Virus record (IMG/VR): IMGVR_UViG_2690316062_000005
Length of the DNA stretch: 44,255 nt
Source of the DNA: a virus
Lineage: Duplodnaviria > Heunggongvirae > Uroviricota > Caudoviricetes
Strand: one strand, 5' to 3'
Every line of letters begins with the position of its first letter. The stretch's first letter is position 1. Position numbers and translations under genes: made by a program. Positions 6,537-9,760 of this stretch are shown here, one piece after another. The notes under the pieces are model-generated. The model was not told the DNA's origin, did not search any database, and saw nothing but the letters and a program-made list of their open reading frames with translations.

Positions 6537-6902
6537 CTAGTGGCTGAGTCCATGCCCCAGACCGTTCAGATAAACTTCAACCAGCAAATCCCTGGTGTAA
6601 GTCATCTCAACGCCGCGATGCAGATACAAACGACCACGAGCATTAGCTGATGCCGTCCAGGTTGAATCCTTGTGTTTGACGAGCATTCCAGGCTGAACTG
6701 CGCCGCGGTTTACCGTCTGTGTACCGTAGTGCTGATGAACCATGATGTTCTCCACTATTGCTGAGTGAACTTCGCTGGTGGTGCCGTGACGCTGATCTTC
6801 ACAGTTGAGCGTTTTAACTCTGCAGTTCACCACCGCGAAACCCACTCTTATGTGCCTGTCTTTTATCCACTTCAGGCTCGGTGGTATGCTGGTAGTTCTC
6901 AC
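6537..6902 (-). CDS. Hypothetical protein (GTG start)
   Basis: 121-aa ORF; start codon is GTG with no clear RBS; its stop abuts the RBS of the zinc-ribbon ORF. Composition unremarkable; weak support. Confidence 0.3.
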   Translation of the reverse strand: MRTTSIPPSLKWIKDRHIRVGFAVVNCRVKTLNCEDQRHGTTSEVHSAIVENIMVHQHYGTQTVNRGAVQPGMLVKHKDSTWTASANARGRLYLHRGVEMTYTRDLLVEVYLNGLGHGLSH

Positions 6903-6922
6903 ACAGCCAGCAAGGAATAACT

Positions 6923-7216
6923 ATGAAATCAGTAACTAAGCCATGTCCTATTTGTGGTGAAGATTCTTTGTCTTTTAACCAGACAAATCAGTTGGTTAAC
7001 ATCAAAGTAAAACCACCAACTATTCGTGAAGTTCCATCAGTGGTTTACGTTTGCGATACTCACGGATGGTTTTCACTTTCAGAACAGATAAACAGACTCG
7101 TCACATCTAATGACGACCCTGCGGCTAAGCAAAAACTGGCTGTTATTGTCAAAGAGCGATATGTGCCGGAACAGGATCAGCCGTTAGCCCTGAAACCTAT
7201 TGAGTCGCTCGCATAA
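6923..7216 (+). CDS. Small zinc-finger protein (YgiT/MqsA-type zinc-ribbon-like)
   Basis: 97 aa; AAGGA RBS 8 nt upstream; CPICG...(about 30 aa)...CDTHG arrangement; on opposite strand to the surrounding leftward early operon. Confidence 0.45.
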   Translation: MKSVTKPCPICGEDSLSFNQTNQLVNIKVKPPTIREVPSVVYVCDTHGWFSLSEQINRLVTSNDDPAAKQKLAVIVKERYVPEQDQPLALKPIESLA

Positions 7217-7466
7217 GGTCTTTTCGGCTCTCGCTGCGATATCCCAGGCGGTACATTTTCACGTAGGCTTTGCCGCGAGGAATGCCGCCTGTTTTGTTGA
7301 ATCTCTGCTGGGCGCGGCGATGGTGTTTTGCTTCAGGGCTGTTTGAACCTTTCCCGCCATTCGATCGAGAACTTGGGAGTTGCATTGGCTTTTGGCGTGA
7401 ATAGAATTTACGTGCCCAGCATGCTCCAAAGCCGATCATGCCTGTTTTCTTCGTATTACCTTTCAT
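7197..7466 (-). CDS. Small basic protein; candidate N-like antiterminator (first gene downstream of putative pL)
   Basis: 89 aa, rich in Arg/Lys; first ORF transcribed leftward from the putative pL; assignment is by position and composition only. Confidence 0.3.
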   Translation of the reverse strand: MKGNTKKTGMIGFGACWARKFYSRQKPMQLPSSRSNGGKGSNSPEAKHHRRAQQRFNKTGGIPRGKAYVKMYRLGYRSESRKDLMRATQ

Positions 7467-7537
7467 CTCAATCCCCTCGTTTGCCCTTGTCGCCAGGCCA
7501 GCGGAACGTTTGAACTTGATGCGCTTAGTGTTTCTCG

Positions 7538-7590
7538 ATGGGGTGATGATAGCTAAGGCGATTTATTTTATCAATCGCTTAAACGATAAT
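7538..7590 (-). promoter_or_regulatory. Putative pL: -35 TTGATA / -10 TATCAT (minus strand, 17-bp spacer) with overlapping operator-like site
   Basis: Minus-strand hexamers at 7569-7574 and 7546-7551; ATCGCTTAAACGAT (7574-7587) resembles the ATCGC-N4-GCGAT operators at the cI/cro switch. Confidence 0.3.
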
Positions 7591-7911
7591 ATTGTGATTT
7601 TGCCGATTATTATTTGATTTATAAAGTGATTTATTTTTGTATGAGATGCGTGATATGCTCAAAAAAACACCAGGCGGGGATATTGATATGGGTTTAGGAA
7701 TGGATATGTCACGTGATGAGCTGCTGGAAGATCGCGCTGCTTTCATGGCTGGCGAGATTGGCGGTGCAGTTGTCGAGTAGATAATCAACGGTGTGGTGAT
7801 AAGTCGAGATGCGATAGTAGATAGCTTGGAGACTAAGCGTCGCGCGGTTGGAAATGTGATTCACAAAGGAGTGTTGTGGGATGTCACTGCTATGGTGAGA
7901 AAAGGAATATG

Positions 7912-7930
7912 AAAACCGGCATAATGCCGG
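7912..7930 (-). terminator. Intrinsic terminator ending the cI immunity operon
   Basis: CCGGC-ATAAT-GCCGG hairpin (7916-7930) directly after the stop of the 210-aa gene, followed on the minus strand by a U-run (AAAA at 7912-7915 on plus). Confidence 0.5.
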
Positions 7931-7931
7931 T

Positions 7932-8564
7932 TTACTTTGATTTTTCCTGTTGGTGAAGTACTCGTGGAGTAGTTGGTTCTTGAGGTAATTGGATGATAAC
8001 AGGTTGCTGCGCTACTGGTTGAACTACGGGCGGATCACTCTTCAAGGCAGAAACAAGACTAGGTAATGCAACGACAACCGCAATGATAACGCCAAAAATA
8101 GCAAGCCTAGTGGAAATACCTGATTGAATACCGCCAATCGCAGTGTTTATTCCTGTAATTTGCCCTTGTATACCTTCGAATTTGCCATTGATGGCTTTTA
8201 CATCCCCATCAACGCTATCCATTTTCCCTTCAATTTTAGAAGAAATAGAGCTAATAGATGAATTGAGCGATGCCAGCTGAACGTTCATATTCTCGCGTGA
8301 CAAAGCCATTTCAGCTCTAATCGAAGATGCAATGGACTCCATCTCCGCCTTATTGGCAGCTAGAAGTGCTTGCATTTCTTCACGGCTAACTGATGACATT
8401 TCATTTCCCCCATCAGTTTCATTAGCTTCATCTGTTGATTTGATAAAGTTAGTATACATTTCTTCTTTATCGACGCGTAGTCTGTTTTGAACATTGGGGT
8501 ACAGGTCATCTTTATCAATGCCAGAACCGCAGTCTGGGACAGCTTTGAGAGATGGGCCCATCAC
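7932..8564 (-). CDS. Coiled-coil protein with C-terminal transmembrane anchor (unknown function)
   Basis: 210 aa; strong AAGGAG RBS; helical repeat-rich middle; hydrophobic segment LAIFGVIIAVVVALPSLVSAL near C-terminus then Pro/Gln-rich tail; start overlaps stop of upstream gene. Confidence 0.6.
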   Translation of the reverse strand: MMGPSLKAVPDCGSGIDKDDLYPNVQNRLRVDKEEMYTNFIKSTDEANETDGGNEMSSVSREEMQALLAANKAEMESIASSIRAEMALSRENMNVQLASLNSSISSISSKIEGKMDSVDGDVKAINGKFEGIQGQITGINTAIGGIQSGISTRLAIFGVIIAVVVALPSLVSALKSDPPVVQPVAQQPVIIQLPQEPTTPRVLHQQEKSK

Positions 8565-8923
8565 TTCCCATCCTCTCCTTGATCTTCTTTTCTTTTATTA
8601 ATCAGTGTCCTGGCTTTTTTATAAGAAAAAAGCAGTACATGTGCGCAGTGATCACACGTGATTCGAAATAGTGGCATACCGCCAGGATATGTCACAGCAC
8701 TATCAGTATCAGGTTTGTATTGTGCATAACTAAGTGTTTCGATCACATGATGTTTTGGCTGATTTTCTTCTACATCAAGATCAAAGGCACCAACTACAGA
8801 CCATGACTGGTTCCCGCAGATTTGGCAAGTTATTGGTTTTTTGAATGAATTTATGAAATCAATGAACTCATCCGCTGTGATAATCTCGGAGTTTGCTTCA
8901 CTATGAAATAATTCCGATTTCAT
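8561..8923 (-). CDS. Zinc-ribbon protein (unknown function)
   Basis: Start moved to internal ATG (MKSELFH...) with AAGGA RBS; CQIC ... CDHC pair; 120 aa; 44 bp downstream of cI on the same strand. Confidence 0.55.
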   Translation of the reverse strand: MKSELFHSEANSEIITADEFIDFINSFKKPITCQICGNQSWSVVGAFDLDVEENQPKHHVIETLSYAQYKPDTDSAVTYPGGMPLFRITCDHCAHVLLFSYKKARTLINKRKEDQGEDGK

Positions 8924-8967
8924 AATTATGATCCTTTTCTGGGCCAAAGTAGATAAAAAGTACAGTT

Positions 8968-9651
8968 TTACAATCGGTTATACTTTATTGATTCATGAAT
9001 CAATGCCTTACCCATTACGTAGAGTTGATCCTGATTACCTTCGTTAATGTACCACTTCTCATAAGCTGAGTTATCAGACAAAACTGCCAACCTATCGCCC
9101 TGCATCTGCAAGCGCTTCACATGGAAATGTTGTCCGAAAACGAACGCATAAACACCGTCGACCTTGAAGTTTCTTACAGAAATATCGAAAAACAATCTGT
9201 CACCAGACTGTATAGTTGGACACATGCTGTCGCCATCGACCGTCATTACTTTTACGTCTTCCTGAGAACGATTTCCGAAGAGTGAACGAGCGTGTTCGGT
9301 TGTGAACTCAATGGCGTGTAGAACCTCAACAAACTCAGAAATCATGAAAGAACCTGGCCCCGCGCTAAATGTCAGGTCAAGTACGTCAACTCTGAATATG
9401 TTTGAGTCTTTTTTTGTCGCGGTAATGGGAGGCGGTAGCTGGCCATCGTTACGCATCGGTCCGGATCCCGTGGAAAGCCATTCAGGGCGAACATTGAGAA
9501 CAGAAGCTATCTCGACCGTTTTTCTTGAGCTTGATGCACCATTTAGCAGCTTGTTAACACTTGACTGTGCCATGCCAACTGCCTTAGCTAGCTTGCCCTG
9601 TGTATAACCCGCCTCATTCATTGCGCGATCTAATCGCTCAGAAAAACTCAT
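8968..9651 (-). CDS. cI: CI-like prophage repressor (HTH + S24/LexA-type autopeptidase domain)
   Basis: Start set at MSFSERLDRAMNEAGYTQGKLAKAVG (HTH); C-terminal GDSM (Ser) and HVKRL (Lys) dyad of S24 peptidases; divergent from cro with operators between. Confidence 0.85.
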   Translation of the reverse strand: MSFSERLDRAMNEAGYTQGKLAKAVGMAQSSVNKLLNGASSSRKTVEIASVLNVRPEWLSTGSGPMRNDGQLPPPITATKKDSNIFRVDVLDLTFSAGPGSFMISEFVEVLHAIEFTTEHARSLFGNRSQEDVKVMTVDGDSMCPTIQSGDRLFFDISVRNFKVDGVYAFVFGQHFHVKRLQMQGDRLAVLSDNSAYEKWYINEGNQDQLYVMGKALIHESIKYNRL

Positions 9652-9679
9652 TAAAGATACCCCCCTAATAACCTTCATA

Positions 9680-9760
9680 AATATTATCGCCACAGCGATT
9701 AATAAGCAAAAAATCGCATAGGCGATTGACATTCGTTAAAGCGATAAACATAATCAACCT
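9680..9760. promoter_or_regulatory. Immunity switch: two 14-bp palindromic operators with divergent pRM / pR promoters
   Basis: ATCGCCACAGCGAT (9686-9699) and ATCGCATAGGCGAT (9713-9726); pR -35 TTGACA (9726-9731) and -10 CATAAT (9749-9754), 17-bp spacer; pRM on minus strand -35 TTGCTT (9704-9709) and -10 TAATAT (9681-9686), 17-bp spacer. Confidence 0.55.

Follow-up and report, generated by a model that had tools for sequence, protein, structure and literature searches.

The 44,255-nucleotide (nt) stretch of viral DNA analysed here (IMG/VR record IMGVR_UViG_2690316062_000005; hereafter the window) is an intact-looking Rac-like lambdoid prophage, whose leftward pL operon is interrupted by a gene for a 97-residue zinc-ribbon protein that reads in the opposite direction and that we call A97. 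The gene sits in the sieB slot, the sole rightward position in the operon, between the first pL gene and kil, where it converges on a small partner gene that we call B89. The locus has the known sieB/sas architecture, and what is new about it is an uncharacterised cargo with a dedicated partner gene. We conclude that A97 is probably a lysogen-expressed accessory gene that is silenced on the turn to lytic growth; to the whole of our favoured reading, in which A97 is on in the lysogen and is shut off by a pL-driven sas-like RNA together with B89, we give a probability of about 0.55.

A97 and its position in the pL operon

An earlier sequence-only reading of this DNA had picked out a 97-residue open reading frame (ORF) on the plus strand with a good ribosome-binding site and a CxxC...CxxH arrangement. 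Both features were confirmed: the ORF begins with ATG, AAGGA lies 6 nt upstream of it, and the two knuckles read C8-P-I-C11 and C44-D-T-H47. This Shine-Dalgarno sequence was kept in all loci compared, and the predicted product matches phrog_31519 with E=1.7e-60. A search of 5.8 billion proteins returned 22 clusters of homologues with 57-97% identity, nearly all exactly 97 residues long, from Escherichia, Klebsiella, Raoultella, Pseudescherichia, Atlantibacter, Kosakonia and Phytobacter. Residues C8, C11, C44, H47, G48, W49 and F50 were invariant in these clusters (23 sequences), while a divergent branch of 91-95 residues carries Asp instead of H47. Because a profile search of 1.84 billion representatives gave so few clusters (four from the family and one spurious repeat protein), contributing only three divergent clusters of 95-97 residues, we regard the family as narrow. 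Among 16 distinct nucleotide versions, the ratio of nonsynonymous to synonymous substitution rates (dN/dS, Nei-Gojobori) was 0.09-0.29 and the variable columns numbered 46/37/82 at the three codon positions, with the third dominating, which adds purifying selection to the evidence for a gene.

The AlphaFold2 model of A97, built from the family alignment, had a mean predicted local distance difference test score (pLDDT) of 91.2 and a predicted template modelling score of 0.81. It shows a ribbon of four strands together with two helices and a conserved tail in extended conformation, with the knuckles placed at the hairpin ends between strands 4-7/14-26 and 33-44/48-53. By fold class the model makes A97 a zinc ribbon with two knuckles and conserved ligands, and metal binding is predicted. 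Inspection of the translation revealed no internal Met and no hydrophobic segment, and no minus-strand ORF longer than 30 residues lies under A97, except for the final 20 nt of the neighbouring gene. Two complete E. coli genomes contain prophages that match the window with 98.9-99.1% identity around the locus, and there the Prokaryotic Genome Annotation Pipeline (PGAP) labels the ORF a hypothetical protein. A97 had no match to INPHARED phages by tblastn and none to the PDB by sequence, and a literature search on the RefSeq accessions and PHROG identifiers of the family returned nothing. Taken together, the sequence comparisons identify A97 as a genuine, narrowly distributed zinc-ribbon protein gene. 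Its likeness to the 128-residue zinc-ribbon protein encoded beside cI (8561-8947) is limited to the knuckle.

The resemblance to YgiT/MqsA-type zinc ribbons that had also been suggested was not borne out. Profile-profile comparison of the A97 family with E. coli MqsA by hhalign gave a probability of 1.6% over 26 columns, with the CxxC knuckle alone aligned, and the MqsA_antitoxin/YgiT models did not match A97 in Pfam (E<=1) or NCBIfam (E<=0.1). A97 and MqsA are alike in having a CxxC at the N-terminus, a long beta-hairpin, another metal knuckle and a helix after it. In contrast to MqsA, A97 shows no detectable homology to that family, no structural likeness to the MqsA N-domain and no match to a helix-turn-helix family, and the AlphaFold2 model of its 97 residues has no counterpart of a C-terminal XRE-type helix-turn-helix DNA-binding domain; the gene arrangement is also different. 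The search for a partner toxin-like gene that had been proposed was productive in part: a partner on the pL side was found, namely B89, but it is neither MqsR-like nor a recognisable toxin. No co-transcribed MqsR-like (RelE-fold) toxin gene was found at A97, the sole linked gene being the convergent, basic B89. Lar-type restriction-alleviation proteins (PF14354/TIGR03655) were likewise considered and rejected. Like A97, they are small phage zinc ribbons with an N-terminal KPCPxCG knuckle, but the A97 match reached 15.0 bits, far under the curated cut-offs of 28.6 and 39.6, and was confined to residues 5-25, the first knuckle alone.

The ORF had further been described as antisense to the leftward pL operon, and this is indeed its setting, since the repressor, candidate pL, kilR, ydaE, recE and recT around it all read leftward. 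Lambda, P22 and Rac have sieB in just this canonical position and orientation, and the configuration is no rarity among lambdoid phages. The rightward sieB abuts N in lambda and lies 20 nt from gene 24 in P22, both of which read leftward, and in K-12 Rac it overlaps the leftward ydaF. N and gene 24 are the first pL genes of lambda and P22, and sieB converges on each. The A97 locus has the same features: a rightward gene lies within the leftward pL operon, faces the first pL gene in convergent orientation and follows a homologous conserved upstream element.

A control element shared with the sieB/sas region

The roughly 70 nt before A97 were 80-96% identical between loci, compared with 46-83% nucleotide identity for the A97 coding sequence, and 45 of the 74 columns in the upstream alignment were invariant. 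At the heart of this region is a 31-nt core (Table 1), present as a single copy in the window, with 0 expected by chance. By blastn the element matched lambda and P22 with 94% identity over 35 nt, and their common core, TGTGCCTGTCTTTTAACCACnTCAGGCTCGGTGG, lies 75-110 nt upstream of sieB; the element was compared by alignment with those of lambda, P22, e14 and CX15. Additional blastn searches found it in 911 of 5,426 complete E. coli genomes (~17%) and in 138 phage records, including lambda, P22, SfV, SfII, HK140 and Rac-SA53. The core is the reverse complement of the 3' part of the P22 sas RNA.

The sas RNA derives from pL transcription. A superinfecting phage reportedly makes sas, which turns SieB off while the inhibitor Esc is still made (Ranade and Poteete, 1993). 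SieB itself is a product of the prophage that aborts superinfection by relatives (PMC10883804), and sieB translation is under antisense regulation by sas (PMC12197685, PMC13397905). In P22, a 127-nt minus-strand read cluster, P22A-sas, is abundant only in infected cells (PMC13397905, Table 2) and reaches from the start codon of sieB to within the conserved core. The corresponding RNA predicted for the window would be complementary to the A97 leader, Shine-Dalgarno sequence and start codon. Because the A97 control region is a homologue of the P22 and lambda sequence that holds the sieB promoter and the sas antisense RNA, the antisense regulatory arrangement envisaged in the sequence-only reading appears to be built into the locus. 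Its other suggestion, independent regulation, is supported in that A97 interrupts the pL operon on the opposite strand and carries its own strongly conserved upstream control region.

The second stem-loop of the element (stem 2) is preserved by compensatory changes. At least 12 versions of its arms, all of them pairing, occupy the same position, among them TGCTGG/CCAGCA in the window, TACTGG/CCAGTA, TTCTTGG/CCAAGAA, TCCTTTTA/TAAAAGGA, ATCCT/AGGAT and, in lambda and P22, TTCTCG/CGAGAA. RNAfold predicted stem 2 for every variant tested; the arms were tabulated by script, and MAFFT sets the lambda/P22 stem 3 nt out of register. As judged from these sequences, stem 2 is a case of classic compensatory variation. 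In the non-lambda lineages, the motif TGgTAT..T lies just before or overlaps the 5' arm of stem 2. Its TAT..T positions are kept, while positions 4-5 vary with stem 2 (TATGCT, TATACT, TATTCT, TATCCT, TATCTT), so that the motif behaves like a candidate extended -10 for A97.

Within the window no Rfam family reached its gathering threshold, and nothing meaningful was found near the locus at E<=5. Three candidate sites read from the sequence by eye were rejected: a sigma-54 site in the conserved GG...GC spacing was off by one base, a LexA box had the wrong spacing (CTG-N14-CAG), and a CRP site had a poor left half.

Together, the slot, the element and the partner gene suggest how A97 could be controlled. 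In a lysogen, the repressor would shut pL and A97 would be transcribed unopposed from its own sieB-type promoter, its product acting as a prophage-expressed accessory protein. When pL fires, either on induction or in an incoming relative, leftward transcription would collide with that of A97 and would yield a sas-like RNA able to pair with the A97 Shine-Dalgarno sequence and AUG, halting new A97 synthesis. The firing of pL would also express B89, the first pL product, which may neutralise pre-existing A97, as Esc does for SieB and Ith for Tha. In that event the phage would escape its own accessory function. Judged by analogy, from where A97 lies and how it would be regulated, its likeliest class of function would be superinfection exclusion or abortive defence.

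The closest precedent is the sieB-esc-sas system of P22 and lambda. A97 occupies the same slot in the same orientation behind a homologous upstream element with a near-identical core, and the minus strand of that element corresponds to sas. The two systems differ in that the partner of A97 is B89 and not N, and in that A97 and B89 overlap by 20 nt and are co-inherited. A second precedent is the Tha/Ith noncontiguous operon of Staphylococcus aureus phage 80-alpha, for which experiments have demonstrated that a lysogen-expressed defence gene is inhibited by a small overlapping antisense gene (PMC11087260). Here too an accessory gene is paired with a small overlapping gene on the opposite strand, the former is off on induction, and antisense transcription makes the two mutually exclusive, features that A97 and B89 would share under our reading. 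There is no sequence relationship between the two pairs, and the function of A97 and its inhibition by B89 are hypothesised by analogy. Moreover, Tha lies in the cI operon and Ith has its own promoter, unlike the A97/B89 pair, in which A97 would have its own promoter and B89 lies in the pL operon.

Several observations weigh against this reading. A97 has no Pfam or NCBIfam match above cut-off, neither A97 nor B89 matched the PADLOC-DB v2 defence models at E<=0.1, and Foldseek found no structural neighbour of A97 in the PDB or BFVD at E<=0.001; nothing therefore links A97 directly to defence. A97 is not a SieB protein: the A97 hidden Markov model (HMM) did not match SieB (E>1), and as a soluble 97-residue ribbon it is unrelated to SieB, a membrane protein of 160-190 residues, and has no in-frame internal Esc-like start. 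The A97 promoter, the antisense RNA and the antagonism between B89 and A97 are all inferred. The TGgTATGCT motif is missing from lambda and P22, whose -10 regions are unlike that of A97 and must be placed elsewhere, and so the promoter anatomy may differ between lineages. Covariation in stem 2 supports neither strand over the other as the carrier of the functional RNA, since one variant points to the minus strand and another to the plus strand. Finally, in one metagenome contig (OLGB01001171.1, locus L030, 5278-5544) A97 is intact while B89 is broken by a deletion or frameshift, which argues against strong toxicity of A97 without B89 and means that A97 can persist without its partner.

The partner gene B89 and competing explanations

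B89 is the pL-side partner of A97 and, like A97, is a conserved protein-coding gene. Its homologues fall into 32 clusters with 62-94% identity, its dN/dS was 0.07-0.24, and its variable columns numbered 30/40/75 at the three codon positions. The product is strongly basic (isoelectric point (pI) 11.5; 22 K+R versus 3 D+E) and had no Pfam, NCBIfam or PADLOC match. Its AlphaFold2 model reached a pLDDT of only 56, the exception to this low confidence being a basic helix at residues 44-58.

The pairing of A97 with B89 is obligate. Every A97 locus examined, more than 30 from genomes, IMG/VR and metagenomes together with look-ups from B89, has a convergent B89, which is 85-89 residues long across loci. 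The geometry of the 544-bp pair with its 20-nt overlap was constant, including in the divergent loci L034 and L037, with L030 as the exception. The overlap is the best conserved coding stretch (column identity 0.90-0.94), and the pairwise protein identities of A97 and B89 correlate with r=0.79. Compared with a ~94-99.8% identical cassette-less E. coli prophage, both genes are present or absent jointly as a single 631-bp indel. Since just 13 nt of this cassette precede the B89 ATG, it holds no promoter for B89; with only its Shine-Dalgarno sequence inside the cassette, B89 therefore depends on upstream (pL) transcription. With convergent coding regions that overlap by 20 nt, A97/B89 is a candidate excludon. 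No strong intrinsic terminator lies between them. Weak terminator-like hairpins at 7098-7116 (minus strand) and 7306-7319 (plus strand) are found ~90 nt past each stop codon, within the coding sequence of the partner, and would, if functional, set overlapping 3' untranslated regions.

The alternative that survives best is that B89 is an N-like antiterminator, with A97 an unrelated adjacent moron and the hairpin block in the pL leader an analogue of nutL. B89 does occupy the exact position of N and gene 24, opening the pL transcript and facing the sieB-slot gene in convergent orientation, and it is small, basic and predicted to be poorly ordered outside its basic helix. In addition, a conserved block with small GC-rich hairpins lies just 5' of B89. 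Its consensus is AACGTTCCGC(Y)(R)GCC(K)GGCGA(Y)AAGG(G)CA, and it can form two alternative hairpins with wobble or compensatory changes, among them U.G to C-G (CGCU.../...GGCG versus CGCC.../...GGCG; GCCU/GGGC versus GCCG/CGGC). Candidate roles for this block are those of a processing site or of an element of the nut or put kind. The block was found in all loci, including the cassette-less L002 and, before a different ORF, Klebsiella phage 5 LV-2017 (L044), and it directly precedes the first pL ORF, whichever ORF that is.

Against an antiterminator role, the B89 HMM scored lambda N and P22 gp24 at E 0.36 or worse, and the basic helix at 44-58 is not N-terminal like the arginine-rich motif of N. 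The leader block is present as a single copy in the window even at <=3 mismatches, with no nutR-like second copy, and it persists in a B89-less prophage with 99.75% identity over pL and leader. B89 is thus dispensable in a near-identical backbone and travels strictly with A97, not with the backbone, and other Rac- and e14-type phages carry non-basic proteins (YmfJ, rac11) at its position. Given the absence of N similarity and of a second block copy, the presence of the block in a backbone without B89, and the segregation of B89 with A97, we consider an N-like antiterminator unlikely.

The remaining alternatives are each less likely than this one. A97 could be a small regulator or host-takeover factor used in the prophage or early in infection, for example an RNA-polymerase-binding or anti-restriction (Lar/Ral-like) protein; we hold this to be improbable. 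A97 bears a weak resemblance to CarD/Mfd-RID. Alternatively, the cassette could be a cis-acting polarity or interference module that throttles kil expression, its proteins being of minor importance. The pL transcript does cross A97 antisense with no minus-strand ORF, leaving ~350 nt untranslated before kilR, and the K-12 analogues have been scored as excludons. However, both ORFs are under protein-level purifying selection and the metal ligands of A97 are invariant, which a purely cis-acting role leaves unexplained, and we give this explanation little credence. Least probable of all is an MqsA-kind toxin-antitoxin pair with A97 as antitoxin and B89 as toxin, a scheme that has in its favour the CxxC, long beta-hairpin, CxxH and helix layout of A97 and its tight linkage to a small partner gene.

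Other cargos and the surrounding prophage

Among the loci compared, 165 copies of the core are followed by at least 25 unrelated same-strand proteins. These cargos include SieB, A97, YmfI, rac10, proteins of 63, 78 and 81 residues, two other CxxC...CxxC ribbons and proteins of 142-163 residues. Beside SieB the converging partner is an N-type antiterminator; the other cargo families each have a partner protein of their own, with an overlap characteristic of the family: 63 nt for YmfI/YmfJ, 39 nt for rac10/rac11, 83 nt for the 81-residue cargo with its 91-105-residue partner, and 20 nt for A97/B89. In the e14 prophage of K-12 the element (94% identity over 69 nt) precedes ymfI, which converges on and overlaps ymfJ. 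Both ymfI-ymfJ and the Rac pair sieB-ydaF are convergent excludons by K-12 RNA-seq (PMC12288877), and at late times of the SOS response ymfJ is induced by ~4-4.8 log2, with a much smaller change in ymfI (PMC11002266). These convergent overlapping pairs occupy the same slot as A97/B89, but their proteins are unrelated to A97 and B89, and their overlaps are 63 and 4 nt, respectively, compared with 20. The K-12 Rac sieB lacks the control element, and the sieB/ydaF region there has no nucleotide similarity to the window; that analogy is therefore positional only.

Several further loci were informative in their own right. Two IMG/VR contigs (L090, L150) encode cargos of 91-92 residues that have CPxC...Y-x-CP-x-HG-x-FAV in common with A97. 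The A97 HMM scored them at E=1.4e-4 and 0.14, respectively, in a 74-sequence set, and their partners differ or are absent; on sequence grounds, they and A97 may belong to a wider ribbon superfamily. In two others, from lambda-like phages with a lambda-type N (L096, L125), a 142-residue protein with a Cys/His-rich C-terminus replaces sieB behind the element, which indicates cargo swapping beside an unchanged N. E. coli CX15 (L040, 2351-3266) carries two tandem sieB/sas-type elements ~650 bp apart, each with its own cargo (81 and 63 residues) and its own stem 2 (TCCTTTTA/TAAAAGGA and TCTTGG/CCAAGA). In Klebsiella phage 5 LV-2017 (L044, 1572-1883), a 76-residue plus-strand zinc-ribbon ORF behind the element gave a PADLOC match to the defence candidate PDC-M14A (E=7e-6). 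A 102-residue minus-strand ORF, which has the leader block and Shine-Dalgarno sequence of B89, overlaps nearly all of it. Both ORFs bear expression signals, and neither is annotated in the record.

The features of the A97 locus are collected in Table 1. In the window as a whole, the integrase is followed by leftward recT, recE-like, ydaE and kilR genes, the rightward A97 and a leftward LexA-family repressor (8968-9732), beyond which lie a rightward cro/YdaS-like gene, YdaT, replication genes and morphogenesis genes. The operator-like sequence that overlaps the candidate pL, ATCGCTTAAACGAT, matches ATCGCCACAGCGAT and ATCGCATAGGCGAT in the cI-cro intergenic region (two ATCGC-N4-GCGAT sites).

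Table 1. Coordinates of features at the A97 locus (positions in the window)
Feature	Position	Strand	Remarks
Control region and A97
Two-gene cassette, 631 bp	6849-7479		control region, A97, B89 and B89 Shine-Dalgarno sequence
Predicted sas-like cis-antisense RNA	6849-6927	-	ends approximate, by analogy with P22 sas
Conserved core GCCTGTCTTTTATCCACTTCAGGCTCGGTGG	6854-6884		common to the upstream region of sieB in lambda and P22
Candidate extended -10 TGgTATGCT of A97 promoter	6882-6890	+	consensus reading
Stem-loop 2 (TGCTGG, 14-nt loop, CCAGCA)	6887-6912		compensatory changes
A97 Shine-Dalgarno sequence AAGGA	6912-6916	+	6 nt 5' of ATG, directly after 3' arm of stem 2
A97 gene	6923-7216	+	ATG start, 97 codons; zinc-ribbon protein; PHROG 31519, uncharacterised
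B89 and pL
A97/B89 convergent 3' overlap, 20 nt	7197-7216		both stop codons inside
B89 partner gene	7197-7466	-	89 residues; PHROG 29236, uncharacterised; first ORF of pL transcript
B89 Shine-Dalgarno sequence GAGGGG	7473-7478	-	sequence and indel boundary
pL-leader block AACGTTCCGCTGGCCTGGCGACAAGGGCAAA	7480-7510	-	immediately 5' of B89; backbone, not cassette
Candidate pL, TTGATA-17-TATCAT	7574-7546	-	promoter scan, 10/12 matches, consensus-level
Operator-like ATCGCTTAAACGAT overlapping candidate pL	7574-7587	-	consensus-level

On the far side of A97, a 121-residue GTG-start 'kilR' ORF (6537-6902, minus strand) extends into the sas-like element; the conservation of its first 17 codons is due solely to this overlap. 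The 68-residue KilR annotated by PGAP, which starts at 6743, is likely the true gene, and this start would leave ~180 nt of untranslated pL RNA before KilR. Between pL and the end of the repressor operon, a plus-strand ORF (7637-7912) is split by a stop codon into pieces of 47 and 39 residues; PGAP scores it in the matching E. coli genomes as a pseudogene with an internal stop. Downstream of the repressor, at the position of lambda rexA/rexB (7932-8947, minus strand), lie two genes. One encodes a 128-residue CxxC...CxxC protein (PHROG 4293), and the other a 210-residue coiled-coil protein with a C-terminal transmembrane segment (PHROG 5820) and weak matches to MakE and PbeC. They may form a second lysogen-expressed module. 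A hairpin at 7913-7933 resembles a bidirectional terminator.

The cargo survey also allows a broader reading, which we put forward only tentatively, in which A97 and B89 make up a new two-protein module for exclusion or abortive defence that includes its own self-immunity. A97 would be the effector, with a predicted fold for which no structural relative was detected, the antisense RNA and the basic antidote B89 would shut it off, and the sieB/sas element would be a portable lysogen-on/lytic-off unit serving at least 25 cargos, most of them uncharacterised. If true, this would reveal the accessory and defence genes of prophages as a large and unexplored pool, in which cognate partners on the pL side are frequent. 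Should the functional model prove wrong, A97 would still be an ordinary moron in a known hotspot. The most interesting by-product of the analysis is the sieB/sas control element itself, as a widespread covarying module that drives many cargos, of which we found no description in the literature searched.

If our model is right, the orphan family PHROG 31519 and its partner PHROG 29236 would gain a testable role as a lysogen accessory function with self-immunity. In addition, the sieB/sas switch of 1993 would be no P22 curiosity but a conserved RNA/promoter module, absent from Rfam and reused before dozens of cargos, including ymfI/ymfJ of E. coli K-12. Its 31-nt core would then serve as a sequence handle for harvesting exclusion and defence candidates, together with their inhibitors, from lambdoid prophages.

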